From assembly GCA_035356975.1 (NCBI GenBank), contig DAORGW010000001.1, positions 4,951 to 68,950 on the forward strand: a DNA stretch of 64,000 nucleotides. The letters run 5' to 3'. The notes beneath the pieces were generated by a model, which ran no database searches, had not been told where the DNA came from, and saw only the letters and a list, made by a program, of their open reading frames with translations. This document shows positions 4,790-64,000 of this stretch, in pieces. Numbering within the stretch: position 1 is the stretch's first letter; every line of letters starts with the position of its first letter. A program made the translations under genes and the position numbers. This stretch comes from a bacterium. GTDB taxonomy: Bacteria > Patescibacteriota > Patescibacteriia > UBA1558 > S5-K13.

Positions 4790-6478
4790 TTACATTTTGT
4801 TAACAGTATTTATTCCAAGTAAATTTAATCCATTTTTAATTACTTGTGATACGCAGAATACTAGAGCAATTTTTGCTTTTGTAGAGTTTGTATCATTTGT
4901 TATTACTCTAATGTTATTATAAAACTCATTAAAATCTTTTGCTAGATCAATTAGATAATTTGCTACTATATTTGGTTTATAATTCTCTGCTGATTTTATA
5001 AGCACATCTTTAAAATTACTTAAATCTTTTATAATTTTTATTTCTGAGTCTTCTTTTAATAATTTATAATCAATATTTGTTTCGGGTTTTAATTTATATT
5101 CTTTTTTAGCTTTTTCCAAAATACTTAAACACCTTACATAAGTGTATTGTAAATATGGAGATGTGTCTCCATCAAATGCCAGTACCCTATTCCAGTTGAA
5201 AATTATATTTTTGTTTCTATCATTTGATAAATCAGCAAAAATTACAGCACCAAGTCCAATTTTTTTGGCTATTTCTTGATCATCTTTTGCAATTGATTTT
5301 TTGTCTGTCATTATTTTTTTTGCTAAATTGATAGATTTATTCAAAACATCTTCTAGAAATATTATATTTCCTTCACGAGTAGACATTGTGTTATCAGAAA
5401 AACTGAACATTCCAAAATTTACATGTATAAATTTATCTTTATTGAGTTTCATCAAATCTAAAACGGTGAATAATTGTTTAAAATGTAATTCTTGTTCACA
5501 CCCCACAACATATAAAATTTTGTAGGGTTTGTATTTTTTTAATCTATAAATTGCCGCAGATAAATCTCGCAAGTGATAAGAACTTGTTTCATTTGATTTT
5601 AGTAAGAAAAATGGTGGCATTTTAAATTTTTCTAGATCAACTATAAGAGCCCCTTCAGATATTTTTGTATCTAATGATTTTTTTGCTAATTTTAAAGTCT
5701 CTTCTAGATGAGAATTATAAAATGCTTCTCCATCATATGAATCAAATTTTATATTTAAAATTTTATAAATTTTTTTGAATTCTTCAAGAGATAACGATCT
5801 GAAGCTTTTCCATAATTCTAAATTTTTCTTATCATGCTTTTCTAGTTTTTGAAATTGATCGCGCGCCGCATCATCAAGTTTTGGATTTTGTTTTGATTCT
5901 TTGTGAAATTTTACATATAAATCTAGTAAATGTTTTATTGGTTCTTTTTTTAATTCCATAGAACTTCCCCATGTTTTATAAGCATAAATTAATTTTCCAA
6001 ATTGTGTTCCCCAGTCACCCAAATGATTTATACCAATAACCTTATATCCCAATGATTTATATATTTTGTATAATGAGTTTCCTATCACAGTGCTTCTTAA
6101 ATGTCCAATATTAAGTGGTTTTGCAATATTTGGAGATGAAAAATCTATTACAATGACTTTGTTTTTTCCAACACTCTGTTTTCCGAAATTATTTTTTTCT
6201 TTAAAAATTTCATTTATAATATTTTTTGAAATTGAACTATAATCAATAAAAAAATTTACATAAGGACCAATGGCTCTTATTTCTTTTACAAAATTTGGTT
6301 TTTTTATTTTTTTAACTAAATCGTTTGCAATTTCCTGAGCTGATTTATTTAATTTTTTTGATAATTCAAAACATGGAAAAGCATAGTCACCCAATTCTTG
6401 TTTTGGTGGAATTTCAATTTCTGGATTTTTAATTCCGATTGTTTTTGAAATTAAATCTTTTATTTTTTTTTCAAACAT
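4790..6478 (-). CDS. argS: Arginine--tRNA ligase
   Basis: Class I HIGH-type motif PLNIGHLRS, followed by GDWGTQFG, which is typical of ArgS. 562 aa. Confidence 0.85.
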   Translation of the reverse strand: MFEKKIKDLISKTIGIKNPEIEIPPKQELGDYAFPCFELSKKLNKSAQEIANDLVKKIKKPNFVKEIRAIGPYVNFFIDYSSISKNIINEIFKEKNNFGKQSVGKNKVIVIDFSSPNIAKPLNIGHLRSTVIGNSLYKIYKSLGYKVIGINHLGDWGTQFGKLIYAYKTWGSSMELKKEPIKHLLDLYVKFHKESKQNPKLDDAARDQFQKLEKHDKKNLELWKSFRSLSLEEFKKIYKILNIKFDSYDGEAFYNSHLEETLKLAKKSLDTKISEGALIVDLEKFKMPPFFLLKSNETSSYHLRDLSAAIYRLKKYKPYKILYVVGCEQELHFKQLFTVLDLMKLNKDKFIHVNFGMFSFSDNTMSTREGNIIFLEDVLNKSINLAKKIMTDKKSIAKDDQEIAKKIGLGAVIFADLSNDRNKNIIFNWNRVLAFDGDTSPYLQYTYVRCLSILEKAKKEYKLKPETNIDYKLLKEDSEIKIIKDLSNFKDVLIKSAENYKPNIVANYLIDLAKDFNEFYNNIRVITNDTNSTKAKIALVFCVSQVIKNGLNLLGINTVNKM

Positions 6479-47108: not shown

Positions 47109-47199
<91 letters not shown>

Positions 47200-47238
47200 G
47201 TGTTTTATATTTAATTTATTTTTTAAAGAATTTTTATT

Positions 47239-47313
47239 TGGCTGGGGAGGTAGGGTTCGAACCTACGAATGTCGGCTTCAAAGGCCGATGCCTTACCACT
47301 TGGCTACTCCCCA
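47239..47313 (-). tRNA. tRNA-Gln (anticodon UUG), U1-A72, CCA encoded
   Basis: The reverse complement reads TGGGGAGTAGCCAAGTGGTAAGGCATCGGCCTTTGAAGCCGACATTCGTAGGTTCGAACCCTACCTCCCCAGCCA. Anticodon stem TCGGC/GCCGA with loop CUUUGAA. Confidence 0.8.
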
Positions 47314-53589: not shown

Positions 53590-54561
53590 TTAATCTTTTT
53601 TGTAATAATTATTTATATCAAATGGTGCATCTTCTTCGTCATTGGCTATGCTTTTGAAAAGATTTTCTTTTTCTGGCTCTTCGGTTTTGTCTTGCGTTGG
53701 TTCATAAATTTTTTTATATTTTGAAGAAAAATCATTTATTGTGTCATTTGCCTGAGATTTCATTAGTTTCATTGTCTCTTTTACTATTTTTTCGGTTGTT
53801 TCTCTTATAATTAATTCAATATCCTCCGGAATTGATGTTTTGCTTTTTCTTGCAAGTAGGTTATTTGCCTCAAGCCATGTATCAATTGATTCTCCACCAT
53901 CAGCCCACCATCCAGGTAATATATCAAATTTCATTGTGCCCTGTTGTACATAAAAATTATTAACATCTGTTATTTCTAGTTCTCCACGACCAGATGGTTT
54001 TAAATTTTTTATTACATCCCAGACTTGATTATCATATAAATATAGTCCTGTGACAGCTAAGTTTCCCATGAATTGTTTAGGTTTTTCAACAATTTCTAAA
54101 ATTTTATCTCCATCAATACGAGCAATTCCATAATGTTCCGGATGTTCAACTTCTTTTAAAAATACTCTTGCACCAATTGGTGTTTTTTTAAATTCTTCTA
54201 TGGCTTCAGATAAATTATCTTCAAAAATATTGTCCCCTAGTATTACAACCATTTTATCATTATCAACAAATTCTTTTGTAAGAGATAGGGCTTGGGCAAT
54301 TCCACCAGCCTCTTCTTGAATTGCATAAGATAAATTAACACCAAATTCTCTTCCTGAGCCAAGTAATTCTAAGAAATGTCCTGCGTGCCCTTTTCCAGAT
54401 ACAATCATTATATCTTTGATTCCAGCATCACGAAGAGTTTCTATTGGATAATAAATCATAGGTCTGTCATAGACAGGAAGTAAGTGTTTGTTTGTAACTT
54501 TTGTAAGTGGAAATAATCTTGAGCCGGTTCCACCCGCTAAAATAACACCTTTTAATTTCAT
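53590..54561 (-). CDS. rfbA: Glucose-1-phosphate thymidylyltransferase-like sugar nucleotidyltransferase with a C-terminal extension
   Basis: MKLKGVILAGGTGSRLFPLTKVTNKHLLPVYDRPMIYYPIETL matches the RmlA N-terminus. 323 aa. Confidence 0.75.
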   Translation of the reverse strand: MKLKGVILAGGTGSRLFPLTKVTNKHLLPVYDRPMIYYPIETLRDAGIKDIMIVSGKGHAGHFLELLGSGREFGVNLSYAIQEEAGGIAQALSLTKEFVDNDKMVVILGDNIFEDNLSEAIEEFKKTPIGARVFLKEVEHPEHYGIARIDGDKILEIVEKPKQFMGNLAVTGLYLYDNQVWDVIKNLKPSGRGELEITDVNNFYVQQGTMKFDILPGWWADGGESIDTWLEANNLLARKSKTSIPEDIELIIRETTEKIVKETMKLMKSQANDTINDFSSKYKKIYEPTQDKTEEPEKENLFKSIANDEEDAPFDINNYYKKD

Positions 54562-54715
54562 ATTTTTTTAGTTTTTAGTAATTATTTTGCCCAGAGATAG
54601 TCATCCCTCGAAATAAGGCAATTATTAATTAGCTAAAGAATTATTTTTTAATTTAATATATCTTAAGTTAATATTTATAAATTTGCAAGTGAATTTTTAA
54701 CATTTTTTACACACT

Positions 54716-54743
54716 TGACTTTTTTTAATTTTTGTGTAATATA
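54716..54743 (+). promoter_or_regulatory. Sigma70-like promoter TTGACT-16-TAATAT for the small zinc-ribbon gene
   Basis: cacacttgactttttttaatttttgtgtaatatataatc. GGAGG Shine-Dalgarno at about 54755. Confidence 0.4.
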
Positions 54744-54766
54744 TAATCATATATCAATTCTAGTTT

Positions 54767-54967
54767 ATGGAGGAAATCATGAAAGTTTATCCAGGTTTGA
54801 GTCAAACATCTCCAAGAGTTATTTGCCCTGTTTGTGGAGTTGTTTTAGATGATGGTGGTACAAAGACTCAATCCGAAACGACCGAAGTGTGTTCGGAGTG
54901 CAAAAAAAAACAAACAGAAAAAATCCCCAGGGTTAGTTTGGCCCCGGAAAGTAATAAAAACATTTAG
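54767..54967 (+). CDS. Small zinc-ribbon protein (66 aa), hypothetical
   Basis: CPVCG...CSECKK cysteine pairs. Own promoter, Shine-Dalgarno and a strong terminator. Higher GC than its surroundings. Confidence 0.45.
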   Translation: MEEIMKVYPGLSQTSPRVICPVCGVVLDDGGTKTQSETTEVCSECKKKQTEKIPRVSLAPESNKNI

Positions 54968-54971
54968 TATT

Positions 54972-54999
54972 GGCGCATTGTGCGCCTTTTTTATTTTTT
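54972..54999 (+). terminator. Intrinsic terminator ggcgca-ttg-tgcgcc plus a T-run
   Basis: GC stem followed by ttttttattttttg. Confidence 0.6.
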
Positions 55000-55001
55000 G
55001 T

Positions 55002-55844
55002 TTAAGAATCTAGGTAATCTTTTAATGCTTCTTTAAAACTACGAAGTTTTGGAAATTTTGTGTTATTTAATATAGCATTTTTTGGTCTTTTTGCTTTTGT
55101 GTGAAAATCGGAAGAGCCAATTTGATTTAGCTTTATATTTTTAATATTTTTTATTTTAAAGATTTCTTGTGCGAATTCATGTGGGGTAACAGCATCTTCG
55201 TTTGTAAGATGATAAATTCCAAAAGGATAATTTTCTTCTATTAATTGTTTTATTGCAAGACTTAAGTCTTTTGTATATGTTGGTTTAGAAATTTGATCTA
55301 TGATTAAATTTAATTCATCTTTTTCAGTGGCTAATTTTAGCATTGTTTCTACAAAATTCATTCCCCTTTCTTTTCCTTTTTGAGGATTTTTTCCATAAAG
55401 CCATGAACTTCTTATTATATAAAAATTATTTAAATTTTTTTGTAATAATCTTTCTCCATCAGCTTTTGATTTTCCATAAATATTTATTGGGTTAGTCGGA
55501 GAGTCTTCATTATAACCAGATTTATTTTCCCCATCAAAAACATATTCAGTGCTTATGTGTGCTAATATACAGGAATTATTTTTACAAATTTTTGCTAGAT
55601 TTAAAACCGCTTCTGTGTTTATTTTACTTACAATTTCTTCTTCATTTTCAGCTTTTTCAACATCAACAAAAGCAGCACAATTTATAATAACATCAGGATT
55701 TAGTTTAATAATTTTTTTGTTCAATTCTTCTAAATTTGTGATATCTAATTCTTCTTTGTCGGTCAAAATTAAATCATGATTGGAAAAAGCTATGGCAATA
55801 TCTTTACCGAGCATGCCATCTGCACCAGTTATTAGAATTTTCAT
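55002..55844 (-). CDS. rfbD: dTDP-4-dehydrorhamnose reductase
   Basis: MKILITGADGMLGKDIA Rossmann start. Length 280 aa. Within the rhamnose cluster. Confidence 0.7.
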   Translation of the reverse strand: MKILITGADGMLGKDIAIAFSNHDLILTDKEELDITNLEELNKKIIKLNPDVIINCAAFVDVEKAENEEEIVSKINTEAVLNLAKICKNNSCILAHISTEYVFDGENKSGYNEDSPTNPINIYGKSKADGERLLQKNLNNFYIIRSSWLYGKNPQKGKERGMNFVETMLKLATEKDELNLIIDQISKPTYTKDLSLAIKQLIEENYPFGIYHLTNEDAVTPHEFAQEIFKIKNIKNIKLNQIGSSDFHTKAKRPKNAILNNTKFPKLRSFKEALKDYLDS

Positions 55845-55885
55845 AGTATTTTATATTGTTATTTTATCAATATGAAAATATTTTT

Positions 55886-57361
55886 TTATTTTCTATTTAT
55901 GTATTGCTCTTCGTAGTATCTTTGATAATCACCGGATTTTATTTCTCTCCACCATGATTCATTATCTTTGTACCACTGTAGGGCTTGTTTTATCCCATCT
56001 TCAAATTTTATTTTTGGTTCCCAACCAAGTTCATTTTTAATTTTTGAAAAATCAATTGCATAGCGTCTATCATGACCACGTCTATCTGGAACACGTTCTA
56101 TCATTTCCTCTCCTTTTCCAAAATATTCTAATACTAAATTTGTTATCTCTAGGTTTGTTTTTTCACTATCACCTCCAACACAATATGTTTCTCCTATTTT
56201 TCCGTTGTGTAATATTGTATCAACGGCATTTGAGTGATCATCAACATGAATCCAATCTCGAATATTTAAGCCATCTCCGTATAGAGGAACTTTTTTACCC
56301 TCGATTAAATTTGTTGCGAAAAGTGGGATTAATTTTTCAGGAAATTGATATGGTCCATAGTTATTTGAACAATTTGAAATAGTAATAGGAAGTCCAAATG
56401 TATGAAAATAGGCTCTTACTAGATGATCTGATGCTGCCTTTGAAGAAGAATACGGACTTCTTGGATCATATGTTGTGTTTTCTGTGAATTTTCCTGTTGG
56501 CCCCAAGGCACCAAAAACTTCATCAGTTGAAATATGATGAAATTTTTTTATACCAAGTTCATTTGCTATGCGAAGTAATACATTTGTGCCTAGTATATTT
56601 GTTCTTATAAAGGTATCCGGATCCATAATGGATCTATCAACATGAGATTCTGCCGCAAAATGTACCACCCAATCACACCCAGTCATCGCTGTTTTTACTA
56701 TTTCCTCATCACAAATATCTCCCTTTATAAAAGTGTAATTCGGATTATTTTTTAATAATTCTAGGTTTTTTAAATTTCCAGCATAAGTTAATTTATCAAG
56801 ATTTATAATTTTATAATCTGGATATTTATTTAGCATATAATAAATAAAATTTGTTCCTATAAATCCAGCTCCACCAGTTACAAGTATTGTTTTTGAAGTT
56901 AATTCTTTTCTTAACTTCATCCAAATTTTTCCAAGTTCATTTCTGCCATCTTTATTCTCTCCCCAACCCCAAAAATCATCATAAGGAGAATCTTCAATTA
57001 TTAATTTATGGCCAGTTTGTAAAAGTTTGTGTTTTATGTATGGATTTTGTTCTAATTTACATCTTATTATCTCCTCCATCATTTCAACTTTTATATTTTC
57101 CCAATTTTTAGGTATTTTATCTGCATTTTCCCTGGCTAATTTATAGGCATCATGAGCAGATTTTGCATTATAAATTTTTTCTACTAAATCCGGTGCTGTT
57201 TCGAAAAAATGAGAAGCCTGATATGCGTGTTCAGATGTTTGCCACAATTTTCCCCTCCACTCAAGCTGAAAACTTGAAAAATTAGAAAAAACAAAGAATT
57301 CTCTTTCATAAAATCCTATTATATTTCCAGATGTTTCAAGTAATGGGTCTCTAAATTGCAT
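55886..57361 (-). CDS. rfbB: Fusion protein: N-terminal NADAR (YbiA/DUF1768) domain plus C-terminal dTDP-glucose 4,6-dehydratase
   Basis: N-terminal domain FYEREFFVFSNFSSFQLEWRGKLWQTSEHAYQASHF is the NADAR signature. C-terminal domain ILVTGGAGFIGTNFIYYMLNKYPDYKIINLDKLTYAGN is RmlB. Confidence 0.75.
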   Translation of the reverse strand: MQFRDPLLETSGNIIGFYEREFFVFSNFSSFQLEWRGKLWQTSEHAYQASHFFETAPDLVEKIYNAKSAHDAYKLARENADKIPKNWENIKVEMMEEIIRCKLEQNPYIKHKLLQTGHKLIIEDSPYDDFWGWGENKDGRNELGKIWMKLRKELTSKTILVTGGAGFIGTNFIYYMLNKYPDYKIINLDKLTYAGNLKNLELLKNNPNYTFIKGDICDEEIVKTAMTGCDWVVHFAAESHVDRSIMDPDTFIRTNILGTNVLLRIANELGIKKFHHISTDEVFGALGPTGKFTENTTYDPRSPYSSSKAASDHLVRAYFHTFGLPITISNCSNNYGPYQFPEKLIPLFATNLIEGKKVPLYGDGLNIRDWIHVDDHSNAVDTILHNGKIGETYCVGGDSEKTNLEITNLVLEYFGKGEEMIERVPDRRGHDRRYAIDFSKIKNELGWEPKIKFEDGIKQALQWYKDNESWWREIKSGDYQRYYEEQYINRK

Positions 57362-57367
57362 ATATTT

Positions 57368-57778
57368 TTATTTTAAATTTTTAATAATCTCATTATAAGT
57401 TTCCCCTACTTTTGATTTTTCATTTTCATTGGCTTTCCACAATTTTAATCCGTCACCATCAAATCTTTGAACAATATGAAAATGTGTATGCATTATTTCT
57501 TGACCAGCATATTTATCATTGTTAATGTTTATATTAAAACCATCTGATTTTAATATTTTTCTGATTTTTTTTCCTAAATTTTTTGAAACTACAATCATTT
57601 TCTCAAGTATTTCATTATCAGTATTTTCTGTCATATCAAAATGTTTCTTTGGTAATACCAAAACATGACCACGTGATGTTGGATTTATATCAAGAATTGC
57701 AAAAGTAAATTCATCATCATAAATTTTATATGAAGGAATCTCACCATTTATAATTTTACAAAAAATACAATTTTTCAT
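57368..57778 (-). CDS. HIT-family (histidine triad) protein
   Basis: HTHFHIV histidine triad. 136 aa. Confidence 0.85.
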   Translation of the reverse strand: MKNCIFCKIINGEIPSYKIYDDEFTFAILDINPTSRGHVLVLPKKHFDMTENTDNEILEKMIVVSKNLGKKIRKILKSDGFNININNDKYAGQEIMHTHFHIVQRFDGDGLKLWKANENEKSKVGETYNEIIKNLK

Positions 57779-57782
57779 AATT

Positions 57783-58355
57783 TTATTCCCACTCAGGCTT
57801 AAATGTTTTTATAAACCATTTGGTTACTAATGTTAAAATAATTATTGTTATAAAAAATGTAAACCATTCTTTAATATAATTGGGATTAAAAAATTTATCA
57901 TTTATAAATGCTAATATTAGTGATATTGCAATAGCACCCCAGTAATCTGTTGGTAAATTTAATAGCCACTTACTGTGCCAAAAAATATGATCTCCTTTAA
58001 AATCTTTGATTGTAAAATGCGGGTTTATTACAAACCATAAATAATCCCAAGTTATTATAAATATTAAAAAAATACATAATATATTTAATTCCTGAGAAAT
58101 ATTCCATTTTAAATTAAAGAAAAATGATAAATGAAATATTAAAAAAACAAAACTAAATATAAAAAAGTGATAACCTGTTAATTCTTTTCCGCCCATTATT
58201 TTTTTATACAATTTTGAATACCATTTATTTGGATCTGGGCGCCAGGTTGGAATGTTTTTGGCCCAACCATTACCAGCCTCAATTTGCACTTCTAATGCCG
58301 CTAAAACAACAGCCATTACAAATATATACATTGTTCTTATAATTATCACGCTCAT
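57783..58355 (-). CDS. Polytopic membrane protein, hypothetical
   Basis: About 5 TM segments and many Trp residues. Within the rhamnose/glycan operon. Confidence 0.4.
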   Translation of the reverse strand: MSVIIIRTMYIFVMAVVLAALEVQIEAGNGWAKNIPTWRPDPNKWYSKLYKKIMGGKELTGYHFFIFSFVFLIFHLSFFFNLKWNISQELNILCIFLIFIITWDYLWFVINPHFTIKDFKGDHIFWHSKWLLNLPTDYWGAIAISLILAFINDKFFNPNYIKEWFTFFITIIILTLVTKWFIKTFKPEWE

Positions 58356-58371
58356 CTTATTTGATTTTTAT

Positions 58372-58869
58372 TTAATTAATTTTAAATGGTGAATTTTCAA
58401 CCTGTTCCCATCTTATTTCATCAACTTCCTCTGTTTTGCCAGGACCTTTGTATAGTTTATCTGGTAAATTTATTGACCAAGCAGGAACATCTGAAATGCA
58501 TTTATAACCATGTACTATTCCAGGAGGAACAATTACACACATTGGGTTGATTTCCCCCACCTTCATTTCAATGTATATTCCGTATGTTTCGCTATCTTTT
58601 CTGTTGTCCCAGAGGCAAAGTGAAAAGTTTCCGGGTCCAGTAAAAACAAAACAATCTGATTGAAATTTATGTTCGTGAGGACCGCGAACTATTCCAGGAT
58701 TTGTTACAGAAACATAAGTCATAACAGGTTTATAAGTATCAAATTGTGAATTTTCATTTTTTGAAATTATATTTTTTATCTCATCTTCTCTGTATACCTC
58801 ACAAAGCCATCCACGATCATCATGATATTTTTCTAGTTTTTTTATAATTAATCCATTAAATAATTCCAT
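58372..58869 (-). CDS. rfbC: dTDP-4-dehydrorhamnose 3,5-epimerase-like cupin
   Basis: DDRGWLCEVYR and GPHEHKFQSDCFVF...VPPGIVHGY fit the RmlC pattern. Confidence 0.55.
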   Translation of the reverse strand: MELFNGLIIKKLEKYHDDRGWLCEVYREDEIKNIISKNENSQFDTYKPVMTYVSVTNPGIVRGPHEHKFQSDCFVFTGPGNFSLCLWDNRKDSETYGIYIEMKVGEINPMCVIVPPGIVHGYKCISDVPAWSINLPDKLYKGPGKTEEVDEIRWEQVENSPFKIN

Positions 58870-59138
58870 AATTTTAGAATTTATATATTATTTATTCTTG
58901 ATTTTTAAGTATATAACTATAATTATTTTTAATCAATAATTGACTAAATAGTCAAAATATTATGTAATTTTTTTAATTTGTGAAACCAATGTTGTGAAAA
59001 TAATTACTCCAAATAAAATTAAGAATAATTTATTGAGGTCAATATAGTTTGAAACAAGCCCGGGCTTTATAAATTCAAAAATAAAAAACACTACATAAGA
59101 AAATGTACAAAAAATTGTAAAATCTAGTAACAATATTT

Positions 59139-60671
59139 TTATTTTATGTGCCATATATTGGGAATTTTATTTACTAAATTATTATAATTTGTTGATATTT
59201 TTTTTAAAATTGGGTCAAGTAGTTTTTTATACGCCTCATGTTTTGAAATTTTTTCATCATTTATTAATTTTACGGAAATATTTTTTATTTTTATGAATCC
59301 TTTGTTGAATTTTAATTTAGGAGAGGAAATTATGAATTTTAAATTTCCGTTTTCTATTTTTGCATCATCTAAATCAAAATACACAGTGTTTTTATACCAA
59401 TTATCTTTTGTTTTTTCAGGTATTTTATATTGAGCAATTAAATATTTTATATCATGTGATTCAGAATAATTTTCTAGATTTATTATTTCTGGATTAAAAT
59501 ACGTGTCTTTTGAAAATGACATAACTCCACGGGTTGAAATTTTTATATCATTTTTTGGAATAATAATTTTTGCCATTTGTGAACCATTTTCAAAATTATA
59601 CCAATTGTGTTGTTTTGTAACAGATAGATTTTTTCCGTTTATAGAAATATTTTGTAGGCCATTTTTATGTGCGGTATAGAATGATAAAGTATTTCCTACA
59701 GCATAAAGCTCGGTTGTTTTAAATCCCAAATTAAAAAATTTATATGCATATTCTGGATTATCACACAAATAAACCACGTCTATTATTGAAAATAGGTTTT
59801 GCGATGTTTTAATGTTTCTTATTATATTGTCATCATTTGTTAAAAATTCTATTTTATACGCACCCTCCTTTAAATTGGGTATTAAAATTGATATATATTT
59901 TGCGTTTTCATCCGCCCCATCTGTTTTTTTATTTGGATCTTCAATCATTTTTGAATAAATTACTTTATTCATGTTGTTGTAAACTTTGATAAATATATTA
60001 TCACTACCATTTGTTCTGTTTATATCATAAACTGTAAATGTAAAATCCAATGGCTCGTCTTTTATGTATGTATAAAATTTTAATTCTCCACGCAAACAAT
60101 TATTTATTTCAATTTGTTTTTGGGATTTTTTATAATCTTTTATATAAAAATGTTCCCCAAGATTAAAATCATGAGCAGCAACTCCATCTAATTTTTGTAG
60201 TTTTTGATAAAAATCATCTATTGATTTAAAATTTTCGTCTTTTTGCCATAAAGTGTTTATTTCATCAGTTAGTGTGGGCCACTTTATATTATTTAATGTT
60301 TCATTATAAAGAGTGTGTATTTTATAGCTCCAACCCTCTTTATTATCCGCATATCCTAGGGAAATTGATTCCTGTTCTCCCGGATCAAATTCAATATTTA
60401 CTTCAGCCCTATTAAAATTTATAGGACTTCTAACCGTGAAATAAACAGGTTCATCATTTATTTCATAGTAATTATCTTTTTTTATAGCACGGTGTTCGGG
60501 GAATATTACAGATATAAAAGGATTTTGTTTGTTTAGACTTGATACAATTTCCAATTTTCCGTCTAGAGTTAGGTCTTTTTGTATTAGATTGTATATAATA
60601 ACAGAAAAAATTCCTAAAAGTATGGCATTAAAAAATATTCTAAAAATTAAAAATTTTGTATTATGTTTCAT
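59139..60671 (-). CDS. Membrane-anchored protein with a large extracytoplasmic domain, hypothetical
   Basis: Single N-terminal TM, then about 480 aa with no recognisable motif. Overlaps the upstream GT-C gene by 11 nt. Confidence 0.4.
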   Translation of the reverse strand: MKHNTKFLIFRIFFNAILLGIFSVIIYNLIQKDLTLDGKLEIVSSLNKQNPFISVIFPEHRAIKKDNYYEINDEPVYFTVRSPINFNRAEVNIEFDPGEQESISLGYADNKEGWSYKIHTLYNETLNNIKWPTLTDEINTLWQKDENFKSIDDFYQKLQKLDGVAAHDFNLGEHFYIKDYKKSQKQIEINNCLRGELKFYTYIKDEPLDFTFTVYDINRTNGSDNIFIKVYNNMNKVIYSKMIEDPNKKTDGADENAKYISILIPNLKEGAYKIEFLTNDDNIIRNIKTSQNLFSIIDVVYLCDNPEYAYKFFNLGFKTTELYAVGNTLSFYTAHKNGLQNISINGKNLSVTKQHNWYNFENGSQMAKIIIPKNDIKISTRGVMSFSKDTYFNPEIINLENYSESHDIKYLIAQYKIPEKTKDNWYKNTVYFDLDDAKIENGNLKFIISSPKLKFNKGFIKIKNISVKLINDEKISKHEAYKKLLDPILKKISTNYNNLVNKIPNIWHIK

Positions 60672-62265
60672 TTGTAAAATTTATTTTATATAAAAAATAT
60701 TCATCACTTATAAAAACCGATTCTAATTCTATATTTTGTTTTGTATTTTTTAATTCCTTTTTATTATCAAAATAATATATAGGAATTTTTAGATCTTTAA
60801 ATTTTTTTAAATTTTCATAATTGTAAATATCATAATCATATAAAAATACGACATTTCTTTCAGGGAATATAAATTTATCAGATCTATTAGTAAATATTAT
60901 TGCATTATCCTCTGTTTTTGTAATAATTAATTTTTTTAAATTATAAAATTTACTAATATTTTTACTTATCATTTTTTCTCCTTCAATTTTAGAATTATAA
61001 ACCATTGAATAGGAAATATTTGCAAATATTGCTATTAAAATGCCTATAATTAGCGCTGTTAATTTGTTGTTTTTTAATTTATTTATTGATATTGCTATTA
61101 GAATATTTGATAAAACAAAAAATATTAATAAGTATCTTATATAGGAACTTCCAACTGTAACAGAATTTATTATTGCCGTATCAGATATTTTCCAACTGCC
61201 GTAGTAAATAAATAAATAGCTGTTTATTAAAAACCATAAAATTATAAATCCAAACTCTTTTTTTGTAATATTTTTTCTTTTTATAAATAAAATTATAATT
61301 CCCAAAAATAATAATAAACAAAAAATCCAGTTTAATTTTAGAAAAAAATTATAGATTACATAAATGATGTTTTTAATATTTATTCCAAATGGAAAAATAA
61401 TATTAATTACTCTTGTTGGTATATTTGTTTTTGTGTTTGATATTTGTGAAGAAACAACGTTTGTATCAATGTTATTGGCATAGGAAAATTCAAAATAAGA
61501 TGAATTGTGTATTTTATTAAAATAAAAGACCGGAATAAATACAAAAATAAATATCAAAAAAGTTAATAGAATTTTATAATTTATTTTTACTTTATAAAAA
61601 ATTAAAATAAGTATTATGCTTAATAAAACCCATAAAAATTCAGAAGTTCTGGTGATAAGTGATAGTCCAAGAAAAAATCCCCATAAGATAAAGTTTATTA
61701 TTTTTTTATTTTGTATTGATAAAATTAAAAAATAATAAGAAATAATTAAAAGTGAAATAAAAAGTATATTATGCATTAAAAGTTTTGATGAAAAATACCA
61801 AAATCCAGGATTTATTAGAGTTAAAATTGAAGAAATTATAGCAATTTTTTTATCAAATAATTTCTTTATTAATAAATAAAGAAAAATTACAGCAATTATT
61901 GAAAAAATAGGAGTTAAGTATTGTATAATCCAGACCCCAAAAATTTTTGCGATTAGACCATAAATTAAAATAAGACCTATAAAACTAATTGGAATTAAAT
62001 TGAAATTATTTACTGCTATACTTCTGGGGTGAATTAAATCAGAAACATTTGAAATTTCATTTGAGCTATAGCTTAATTTTCTAGATATTGAATTATTCTC
62101 AGTAAAATTTTTAATAAAAAAATAATTAGAAGTTTCATCGGGTGAATTAAAAATAGGCGGATTATAATTATTATTAATATTGAAATAATTGTAAAAACAG
62201 AAAAATAGGCCAAGTATAAATATGGCTAAAATAAGCGAAATAATCTGATATTTGCTAAAATTCAT
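60661..62265 (-). CDS. GT-C fold membrane glycosyltransferase (ArnT/PMT-like, GT39/GT83-type)
   Basis: About 12 TM segments. The first loop motif SPDETSNYFF resembles the DE-x-x-Y motif of ArnT/PMT family enzymes. Confidence 0.5.
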   Translation of the reverse strand: MNFSKYQIISLILAIFILGLFFCFYNYFNINNNYNPPIFNSPDETSNYFFIKNFTENNSISRKLSYSSNEISNVSDLIHPRSIAVNNFNLIPISFIGLILIYGLIAKIFGVWIIQYLTPIFSIIAVIFLYLLIKKLFDKKIAIISSILTLINPGFWYFSSKLLMHNILFISLLIISYYFLILSIQNKKIINFILWGFFLGLSLITRTSEFLWVLLSIILILIFYKVKINYKILLTFLIFIFVFIPVFYFNKIHNSSYFEFSYANNIDTNVVSSQISNTKTNIPTRVINIIFPFGINIKNIIYVIYNFFLKLNWIFCLLLFLGIIILFIKRKNITKKEFGFIILWFLINSYLFIYYGSWKISDTAIINSVTVGSSYIRYLLIFFVLSNILIAISINKLKNNKLTALIIGILIAIFANISYSMVYNSKIEGEKMISKNISKFYNLKKLIITKTEDNAIIFTNRSDKFIFPERNVVFLYDYDIYNYENLKKFKDLKIPIYYFDNKKELKNTKQNIELESVFISDEYFLYKINFTNET

Positions 62266-62313
62266 TATTTTTATTATATCATTTAAGTATATATAAAAAA
62301 AGTTAAAGTATTG

Positions 62314-62841
62314 TTATATTTTGTAGAAGTAAAACTTACTATTTCTGAAATTTATAGTTTTTTCTAATTTGATATTTGGTATTGAAAATCTGTAGCTAAT
62401 AATCAATGTATTAATTTTACATTCATTTTTTAATTTTTGACTTAATTTTTCCATTACATCTGGTATGAGATAACAATAAATTATGTCTGCATCTTGTAAA
62501 TTAGTTTTCAGAAAATTTTCACAAACAATTTTTATTTTACTTTTAATGAGCTTAAGTTTTATTTTCGTAAGTAGATATGGTAGAAATGAATATTCTATGC
62601 CAATATATTTTGAATTAGGCAGAATTTTCTCAGCCATTATTAAAAATTTGGCAAATCCACACCCAAGTTCATAAATATTATAGATTTGATTTTTTTCTAT
62701 TTCCCCTAGTATTTTTTTAATAAAAATTTTATTTGTCGAAAAAAGTGGAGCATATCCACGAAATAAAATATTAAAAAATTGAATAACAGAGAATACAAGC
62801 AAAATAAAAACTATTATTAATATTGGTATTGTTAAAATCAT
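62314..62841 (-). CDS. Class I SAM-dependent methyltransferase-like protein
   Basis: YELGCGFAKFL resembles motif I (E/DxGxGxG). N-terminal TM. First gene of the minus-strand glycan operon. Confidence 0.45.
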   Translation of the reverse strand: MILTIPILIIVFILLVFSVIQFFNILFRGYAPLFSTNKIFIKKILGEIEKNQIYNIYELGCGFAKFLIMAEKILPNSKYIGIEYSFLPYLLTKIKLKLIKSKIKIVCENFLKTNLQDADIIYCYLIPDVMEKLSQKLKNECKINTLIISYRFSIPNIKLEKTINFRNSKFYFYKI

Positions 62842-62939: not shown

Positions 62940-64000
62940 ATGACAATCAATTGGAAAACGTATTATATAATTTGTGTTGTGCTGCTTTTAGCCCTAATTT
63001 TTAATTTTTTTTATTTCCAGGGTCAAATTTCATCAATTATAATAGGGGTTTTATATTTTTTGTTTTTTGGGTTATTTTTCGGACATTTATTTTTTAGAAA
63101 ATACAATATACTATCAAAGCTTGTTTTTGGTATAATACTTCTTGTTTCATATATAATGATTTTGGGAGGTATTTTTTATTATTTATGGGGAATTTATAAT
63201 ATTTCAATAGTAATTATTTGTGTTCTCGCCCCTTTATTTTTAGGGTTTTCTCTGATTCACCACCCACTAAAAATCAAGTTTAATATTAAAAAACCAACAT
63301 ATTTATTAATTGTTAAAATAGTACTAGCTATAATTTATTTGATTTTGTTTTATTTTCAAATTAAATATTTATATTCAAAGGGTACAAGTGATTCAATAAA
63401 TACTCCCTGGAAAATTATTTCTAGTAATTTTTTTATATCCTATTTTATAGGAACAGTTGTTTTATTTTTGCTTTTTTTGGTTAGTAAACAAAGAATTTTT
63501 TTAATATTTGCAAGTATTCATTATTTTTTGTCTTTTTCTGTTATTTTATTTATTTATAAGCTTGGTTTTGGTTATGATCCTTATTTACATCAAGCATCTG
63601 AAAAAATGATTTTTAATAATGGAATCTTTTTACCAAAACCTTTTTATTATATAGGTCAGTATAGTTTAGTCGTGTTTTTATCAAAGATTTTTATGTTTCC
63701 CGTTCAATTTTTTGATAAAATTTTACTTCCACTGCTATCCTCAATTTTTTTACCAATAGTTGTGTTTCAATCACTTAAAGACAATTTAAATATAAATAAA
63801 AAAGTAATTTTTTCTTGTGTTTTGATATTTTTAATTATTCCTTTTTCAAATTTTACCTATACTACCCCCCAAGCACTCGCCAATTTACTTACAATAGTTT
63901 TGATATTTTTATCAATTTCTTATGTTAATAGAAAATTATTTAGTATTATACCTCTTTTTATAATTGCAATTTCAATTTGTTTTATTCATCCAATAAGTGG
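62940..64000 (+). CDS. Polytopic membrane protein, 3'-partial (runs off the window). Possibly another GT-C/membrane glycosyltransferase.
   Basis: ATG at 62940, then at least 350 codons with 10 or more hydrophobic segments and no stop before the window end. Divergent from the methyltransferase operon. Confidence 0.4.
   Translation, partial: MTINWKTYYIICVVLLLALIFNFFYFQGQISSIIIGVLYFLFFGLFFGHLFFRKYNILSKLVFGIILLVSYIMILGGIFYYLWGIYNISIVIICVLAPLFLGFSLIHHPLKIKFNIKKPTYLLIVKIVLAIIYLILFYFQIKYLYSKGTSDSINTPWKIISSNFFISYFIGTVVLFLLFLVSKQRIFLIFASIHYFLSFSVILFIYKLGFGYDPYLHQASEKMIFNNGIFLPKPFYYIGQYSLVVFLSKIFMFPVQFFDKILLPLLSSIFLPIVVFQSLKDNLNINKKVIFSCVLIFLIIPFSNFTYTTPQALANLLTIVLIFLSISYVNRKLFSIIPLFIIAISICFIHPIS

Follow-up and report, generated by a model that had tools for sequence, protein, structure and literature searches.

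A NADAR-RmlB fusion of stepwise origin in a rml/GT-C gene cluster of Patescibacteria

The stretch of DNA considered here, called the window, comprises 64,000 nucleotides of a Patescibacteriota genome (assembly GCA_035356975.1, contig DAORGW010000001.1, positions 4,951 to 68,950) with a GC content of 27%. At positions 53590-62841 it contains a cluster of genes related to deoxythymidine diphosphate (dTDP)-rhamnose synthesis, in which the dTDP-glucose 4,6-dehydratase RmlB is joined to an N-terminal NADAR domain of the YbiA family in a single open reading frame (ORF). NADAR-RmlB is a new combination of two known families, present in a few closely related genomes and with a well-explained, mundane origin. 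The protein is probably a bifunctional fusion whose two activities are independent of each other, a lineage-specific and tolerated arrangement within an ordinary rml/GT-C surface-glycan cluster. Close packing of genes, and not new sugar-nucleotide chemistry, seems to have produced the fusion as a side effect. The protein and its parts are located as follows.

55886-57361, minus strand: NADAR-RmlB fusion ORF, 491 residues (PF08719/TIGR02464 plus TIGR01181)
56900..57361, minus strand: NADAR (YbiA-family) domain, fusion residues 1-154 (PF08719, TIGR02464)
56888..56899, minus strand: fusion junction, where the four residues TSKT link the last NADAR helix (...IWMKLRKEL) to the first RmlB strand (ILVTGGAGFIG)
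55886..56887, minus strand: RmlB domain, fusion residues 159-491 plus stop (TIGR01181)

Domain structure and authenticity of the fusion

Profile searches revealed that residues 17-154 match PF08719 with 101 bits (cut-off 35.1) and that the domain scores 98 bits against TIGR02464 (cut-off 73.7). The domain also matches E. coli YbiA (PDB 2B3W) in a phmmer search (E 5.5e-23). An AlphaFold2 (AF2) model built from the NADAR domain with 17 homologues, with a predicted local distance difference test (pLDDT) score of 80.6, superimposes on 2B3W with a template modelling (TM) score of 0.77 (Foldseek E 1.5e-9) and on the ADP-ribose complex 8BAU with a TM score of 0.72 (Foldseek E 5.5e-7), in agreement with the YbiA fold, which is defined by five core helices with small sheets on their flanks. 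An earlier reading of the region made from the sequence only had placed a NADAR/YbiA domain at the N-terminus of the dehydratase, and the scores of both families, together with the modelled fold, bear this out. The RmlB part scores 477 bits against TIGR01181 (cut-off 365) over residues 159-474, carries the short-chain dehydrogenase/reductase motifs GGAGFIG, STDE and YSSSK in translation, and is 68-97% identical to stand-alone RmlB proteins of Patescibacteria. The C-terminal 333 residues resemble the well-known RmlB/RfbB family in passing the equivalog cut-off of TIGR01181 and in lying next to rmlD and close to genes of the RmlC and RmlA types, whereas the 154-residue NADAR domain on its four-residue linker sets the window protein apart.

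The active-site residues of the NADAR domain were mapped from published structure-function work (PMC11543638). E44 in the TSEH motif occupies the position of the catalytic glutamate, which is E88 in the E. coli C7 NADAR and E43 in that of P. nicotianae (PMC11543638). E123 in the IIEDS motif of the last β-strand is invariant in the 17 homologues and aligns to the glutamate of LVEHT in YbiA, being neither aspartate nor histidine, and W87, K91, D128 and W131 are conserved. Compared with E. coli YbiA (PF08719, TIGR02464), the domain has the same fold at ~32% identity, keeps the catalytic and last-strand glutamates as well as Trp87, Trp131 and Asp128, and is likewise a "naked" domain of ~155 residues without extensions. 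It differs in being covalently joined to RmlB and in one clade-wide substitution. The lysine seven residues after the catalytic glutamate (K95 of the E. coli C7 protein and K50 of that of P. nicotianae) binds phosphate and adenine (PMC11543638); it is present in YbiA itself and largely conserved across the NADAR superfamily, whereas the Patescibacteria domain has His51 here (window ~57209-57211), invariant in all 17 aligned homologues. Judged by the mapped residues, the active site, whose integrity the sequence-only reading had proposed to check, appears to be a largely intact YbiA-type site apart from this lysine-to-histidine exchange.

The ORF is uninterrupted in the window, and an independent metagenome-assembled genome (MAG), L001 (GCA_028703545.1, JAQVMR010000035; 90% nucleotide identity), has the same junction, ...KELTSKTIL(V/I)TGG, in an equally uninterrupted 491-codon ORF at 106-1581. 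(L-numbers label loci on related genome contigs and P-numbers label proteins.) In L008 (an NCBI MAG), L093 (JGI) and L002 (ENA) the two domains are fused in a second way, through a linker of 22 residues (...REELYQQKTKDNYLSQSTNKERKILITGG). The fusion is therefore a genuine architecture, with the short junction in two assemblies and the long-linker type in three more. Although L002 derives from an assembly of low coverage (1.8x) in which frameshifts are numerous, an artefact of assembly or sequencing that brought two genes together is extremely improbable, since the window and L001 share one junction and the second junction type is identical in three genomes from the NCBI, JGI and ENA sources.

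The closest database protein, P0001 from L001, is 97% identical and was annotated by NCBI (PGAP) as a 345-residue RmlB starting at Met148. The NADAR half is unannotated in GCA_028703545.1, so that protein databases in effect conceal the fusion. This annotation would agree with translation of RmlB alone from the internal ATG, the NADAR part being untranslated or a decaying remnant. Such an explanation is very unlikely, because the 147 codons upstream of Met148 are open in every fused genome and the NADAR part keeps all invariant family residues, with a ratio of nonsynonymous to synonymous substitution rates (dN/dS) of 0.10-0.17. Furthermore, Met148 is itself an invariant NADAR residue in the IWM motif, not a new start, and the fusion ORF begins 6 nt after the stop codon of the upstream HIT gene, as the separate NADAR genes of relatives do.

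Origin of the fusion and its relation to the rhamnose genes

The close relatives of the window are MAGs of Patescibacteria, or candidate phyla radiation (CPR), including the Komeilibacteria genome L009, and Falkowbacteria are more distant syntenic relatives. The shared gene order is GT-C, 510-residue protein, small ORF, RmlC, mem190 (a membrane protein), HIT, X, RmlB, RmlD, RmlA, PEGA, MurA, Ctp, L9 and PyrG, where X is a variable slot between HIT and rmlB. In L003-5, L007, L009 and L092, NADAR (157-167 residues) and rmlB (336 residues) are separate adjacent genes in the same synteny; in L007 and L009 they lie in the same frame with in-frame stops between them. The distance between the anchors GRNELGKIWM and TGGAGFIG is 138 nt in L007/L009 and equally in the long-linker fusions (L008/L093/L002), and it is 93 nt, that is 45 nt shorter, in the window and L001. 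Therefore, the fusion has a two-step origin by stop loss and subsequent deletion. In the first step, the in-frame stops in the spacer of ~20 nt were lost without a change of length, leading to a 491+15-residue form with the 22-residue linker. In the second, a 45-nt in-frame deletion in the lineage of the window generated the four-residue linker. The fused genomes form one clade in a neighbour-joining tree of RmlB. NADAR has a pairwise dN/dS of 0.10-0.17 among the fused and of 0.07-0.09 among the unfused genomes; for RmlB the corresponding values are 0.03-0.08 and 0.08-0.12. Both halves of the fusion are under purifying selection and are maintained.

The slot between HIT and rmlB has different contents in the relatives. 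No gene fills it in L090, which is sister to the fused clade and has an RmlB of 85% identity, or in L091/L102. In L092 it holds a MazG-like gene together with NADAR, and in L100/L104 a 183-residue Nudix protein whose best matches, NudE and YffH/AdpP, are below the curated cut-offs. In Falkowbacteria (L086/L094/L095) it is occupied by a 146-residue Nudix protein, for which the best match, GDP-mannose mannosyl hydrolase, is sub-threshold at 44.6 bits. That the genes beside HIT are of nucleotide-hydrolase types is a hint of some common ground with nucleotide-sugar metabolism. The slot behaves like a small island with a changing set of such genes. In L091 the HIT-rmlB spacer (5438-5732) contains a short duplicated remnant of the rmlB 5' end, which encodes MKIFITGGA upstream of the real start.

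Stand-alone NADAR is highly conserved across Patescibacteria, with ~800 homologues at 65-79% identity; JGI labels such homologues "ribA/ribD-fused uncharacterized protein". A survey of gene neighbourhoods covered the best 80 of 462 genome loci, with flanks of up to 10 kb. Among these 80 closest species-representative loci, rml genes are near NADAR in four, all of this clade, and the neighbours of the remaining loci are heterogeneous. Conversely, the rml clusters of Moranbacteria and CPR2 contain no HIT, mem190 or NADAR gene. NADAR is thus not an integral step of the rhamnose pathway and is dispensable for the cluster, because the slot varies or is empty in sister genomes and 76 of the 80 orthologues are not linked to rml. 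Separately, many NADAR loci of oral Saccharibacteria (L032-L081) have a recurrent neighbour of 281 residues, which by eye seems to resemble Bro-N/DinD proteins; some have a 368-residue neighbour with an RSPLEH motif, which may be ThyX-like.

When the whole fusion was compared exhaustively by HMMER with 1.84 billion representatives, no other NADAR-RmlB fusion was among the best 150 matches, and the long RmlB matches were joined to GT4, CoA_binding_3, RmlD or DegT, or interrupted by inteins. The intein-bearing RmlB homologues (Intein_splicing, LAGLIDADG) among the best matches include P0308, P0318 and P0340. A literature search found no report tying NADAR to rhamnose genes. NADAR is thus as unusual a partner of RmlB as the sequence-only reading had supposed. 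Its further suggestion, of an unusual step in nucleotide-sugar processing, is not supported: sister clusters lack NADAR or have Nudix or MazG-like genes instead, most orthologues are not near rml, and the loss of stop codons between neighbours plus a 45-nt deletion suffices to explain the fusion.

Gene content and organization of the cluster

The nine ORFs recognized earlier in 53590-62841 are all on the minus strand with their coordinates unchanged, and two genes absent from that list, the 64-residue membrane ORF and the opposite-strand zinc-ribbon ORF of 66 residues, are added here. Apart from the fusion, the genes are the following.

62314..62841, minus strand: putative small methyltransferase, 175 residues, with an N-terminal transmembrane helix and the motif ELGCGFAKF; first gene of the minus-strand cluster
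60661..62265, minus strand: GT-C glycosyltransferase (PMT_2/ArnT-like), 534 residues, polytopic (PF13231 match)
59139..60671, minus strand: 510-residue protein with no assigned function and an N-terminal transmembrane anchor; 11-nt overlap with the GT-C gene
58960..59154, minus strand: small membrane protein, 64 residues; 16-nt overlap with the end of the 510-residue gene
58372..58869, minus strand: divergent RmlC-like cupin, 165 residues, probable dTDP-4-dehydrorhamnose 3,5-epimerase (PF00908)
57783..58355, minus strand: mem190, a Patescibacteria-specific membrane protein of 190 residues (97 homologous clusters)
57368..57778, minus strand: HIT (HinT-like) nucleotide hydrolase/transferase, 136 residues (PF01230)
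55002..55844, minus strand: RmlD, dTDP-4-dehydrorhamnose reductase (TIGR01214, PF04321)
54767-54967, plus strand (54767..54986 with the hairpin included): zinc-ribbon ORF, 66 residues (CPVC...CSEC)
53590..54561, minus strand: RmlA-like glucose-1-phosphate thymidylyltransferase, 323 residues, with a low-complexity C-terminal tail (PF00483)

Regarding the rhamnose pathway, RmlD scores 272 bits against TIGR01214 (cut-off 224) and 280 bits against PF04321. The RmlA-like protein passes the Pfam cut-off of PF00483 (NTP_transferase, 192 bits), and its best family models, those of rmlA, remain below their equivalog cut-offs (TIGR01207, 244 against 361 bits; TIGR01208, 237 against 320 bits), with residues 4-245 aligned; the protein is 70-97% identical to its counterparts in syntenic relatives. 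The RmlC-like cupin scores 49.9 bits against PF00908 (cut-off 27) and 42 bits against TIGR01221 (cut-off 156). Its best PDB match is RmlC of S. tokodaii (2b9u, E 1e-9), to which the catalytic histidine of RGxH aligns and the Lys/Tyr pair does not clearly align. All four dTDP-rhamnose steps are therefore likely to be encoded, as claimed before; RmlB and RmlD exceed equivalog cut-offs, whereas RmlA and RmlC are assigned as best family matches below them.

The gap of 440 bp between rmlD and rmlA contains the opposite-strand zinc-ribbon ORF, directly followed after its stop by a GC-rich hairpin, GGCGCATTGTGCGCC, and a T-run, which are read as a terminator. L002/L008 have homologues of this ORF in the same relative orientation (48% identity), and L007 has it twice. 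With a conserved gene on the other strand standing between rmlD and rmlA, the region is probably not the single operon described earlier. A promoter scan was uninformative, with 88 sites found against 88.9 expected in DNA of 27% GC. The Rfam matches in the window are two tRNA genes alone (47113-47313, minus strand), far from the cluster. In L003/L004/L005 (11601-15218), an ORF of 1205 residues without a Pfam match lies between rmlB and rmlD; it does not occur in the window.

The HIT protein scores 92.5 bits against PF01230 (cut-off 21.5), shows the HxHxHxx motif as HTHFHIV, and reaches 94.5 bits against the HinT model NF045834, below its cut-off of 130. The GT-C protein matches PMT_2 (PF13231) with 38.5 bits (cut-off 26.1) over residues 102-248, has multiple hydrophobic segments and a weak match to the LA_3751/3752 family, and is syntenic in L003, L007, L008, L086 and L091. 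HIT and GT-C thus pass their Pfam cut-offs, and their reported association with rml genes and membrane proteins of unassigned function is confirmed. The 510-residue protein has no family above threshold in Pfam, NCBIfam or PADLOC and is kept downstream of the GT-C gene in relatives, and small ORFs homologous to the 64-residue one occupy the same position in L003, L002, L086, L090 and L091. The overlapping stop and start codons after the GT-C gene suggest that both are probably partners of GT-C. The mem190 family comprises 97 homologous clusters (P0391-P0487), found in Patescibacteria only and none with a Pfam domain, with the invariant residues E22, E26, H63, H75, D104 and H127 and a C-terminal KPEWE. 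A Foldseek search of the PDB with its AF2 model (pLDDT 82.7) gave no match at E<1, and in distant lineages mem190 stands beside GH42-like (faint), EamA and DUF6938 genes, not rml.

The methyltransferase assigned earlier is a putative one. ELGCGFAKF is visible in the 175-residue protein, and we take it to be a motif of the S-adenosylmethionine-binding type; the protein has no Pfam match, and its NCBIfam match, NF041081 (archaeal protein-lysine N-methyltransferase), is weak at 49.5 bits against a cut-off of 200. Among the relatives, the gene is found in L002/L008/L093 only. No Leloir rhamnosyltransferase is encoded within 53590-62841, so that a rhamnose-containing glycan, the product suggested earlier, is not established. 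A divergently transcribed polytopic membrane ORF (~62941-64000, plus strand) runs past the end of the window; its orthologues have 550-700 residues and no Pfam match, and in L002, L003 and L086 two GT4 glycosyltransferases follow them. Part of the glycan cluster thus probably lies past the window.

Functional readings and significance

The window would harbor an ordinary cell-surface glycan cluster of Patescibacteria, made up of RmlC-like, RmlB, RmlD, RmlA-like and GT-C proteins and accessory membrane proteins. Between HIT and rmlB, small nucleotide "house-cleaning" genes would have been inserted, and in one small clade the NADAR gene of this slot was joined to rmlB. The RmlB half is predicted to convert dTDP-glucose to dTDP-4-keto-6-deoxyglucose, which would be passed to the RmlC-like protein and RmlD for the surface glycan. 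The enzymes of glycan assembly probably lie partly outside the window, with GT-C inside and GT4 genes further upstream in relatives. The NADAR half would be a YbiA-family hydrolase of ribosyl-N (glycosylamine-type) bonds with a clade-wide housekeeping role, probably in reversing ADP-ribosylation on the bases of nucleic acids or in metabolite clean-up and not in rhamnose synthesis. The fusion itself may then be a neutral or mildly beneficial outcome of translationally coupled, same-frame neighbors in a compact genome. A role of the NADAR half on riboflavin intermediates was considered as well and is unlikely here, because CPR in general are auxotrophic bacteria without cofactor biosynthesis, and these hosts probably do not make riboflavin.

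The known activity of NADAR domains is to split ribosyl-N bonds, both those of riboflavin intermediates and those of ADP-ribosyl-guanine or -cytidine (PMC11125620, PMC11543638, PMC12945103), and this chemistry has no obvious dTDP-hexose substrate. The classic fusion of NADAR to a biosynthetic enzyme is RibA/RibD-NADAR (COG3236), in which the partner pathway supplies the NADAR substrate, namely riboflavin intermediates (PMC11125620, PMC11543638). The fusion in the window differs in having no evident substrate relation to dTDP-sugars and in its limitation to one small clade. The Nudix GDP-mannose mannosyl hydrolase Gmm/WcaH is likewise a small nucleotide-sugar hydrolase inside a sugar-nucleotide cluster (e.g., that of colanic acid), but its fold and chemistry are different, since it cleaves pyrophosphate/glycosyl-phosphate and not N-glycosidic bonds, and the analogy is one of gene position alone. 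The DarT1-NADAR and YarT-YbiA pairs belong to the same superfamily, and YarT-YbiA also to the same subfamily. Hydrolysis of ADP-ribosyl-guanine is the best-documented NADAR activity (PMC11543638, PMC11125620).

Several observations weigh against this reading of two independent activities. The slot occupants are solely nucleotide or nucleoside diphosphate-X hydrolase types (NADAR, Nudix, MazG-like), and they always stand beside HIT. The phosphate-binding lysine is replaced by His51 family-wide. The fused state has been kept over a dS of ~0.7-1.1 with both halves conserved, which an advantageous coupling would predict as well. In addition, the RmlB tree is rough, and the neighbourhood survey was limited to the loci and flanks given above. 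On this basis, HIT and the slot gene could form a functional module, a quality-control or regulatory unit for the nucleotide(-sugar) chemistry of dTDP-rhamnose, with the fusion tethering this activity to RmlB. Every syntenic cluster, that of the distant Falkowbacteria included, has HIT directly upstream of the slot; the Nudix occupants best match GDP-mannose mannosyl hydrolase or NudE and YffH-AdpP; and purifying selection maintains the fusion. Nevertheless, this reading is unlikely, as every Nudix match is below its curated cut-off, L090 and L091/L102 have nothing in the slot although their rml genes do not otherwise differ, the ribosyl-N chemistry offers no obvious dTDP-hexose substrate, 76 of the 80 NADAR orthologues are unlinked to rml, and further CPR rml clusters have neither HIT nor NADAR. 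A more specific version, quite unlikely in our estimation, regards HIT and the slot gene as a nucleotide(-sugar) surveillance module of ABY1-type Patescibacteria, in which the fusion would physically link the first committed step to a YbiA hydrolase of the His variant that acts on a new substrate; this substrate may be a damaged or mis-made nucleotide-sugar or its base-ribose adduct.

It is highly improbable that NADAR is here the antitoxin or defence part of a toxin-antitoxin pair of the DarT1-NADAR or YarT-YbiA type, with an incidental location in the cluster. YbiA-family proteins are able to counter ADP-ribosyltransferase (ART) toxins (PMC11125620), and the domain has a weak match to the NADAR anti-phage protein NF053876 (72.5 bits against a cut-off of 240). 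However, the adjacent genes are HIT and RmlB, with no gene of the ART fold or of DarT/YarT next to the domain, PADLOC gave weak generic matches only, and the catalytic acid is the glutamate of the YbiA family and not the aspartate of DarT1-linked NADARs. The independent bifunctional fusion is thus the preferred explanation.

Gene fusions are often taken as a "Rosetta stone" sign of a common pathway. The NADAR-RmlB case shows how a fusion can arise stepwise without a pathway link in dense CPR genomes, where same-frame neighbors lose first the stop codons and then the spacer between them. As the fused form is called as RmlB alone in public annotation, it also advises caution against over-reading rare architectures. 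The findings raise the questions of what role the highly conserved (~70% identity) His-variant NADAR has across Patescibacteria and why nucleotide-hydrolase genes repeatedly occupy the place beside HIT and rmlB. If the minority reading of a functional module were true, it would provide a new class of NADAR substrates and a quality-control step in nucleotide-sugar synthesis.

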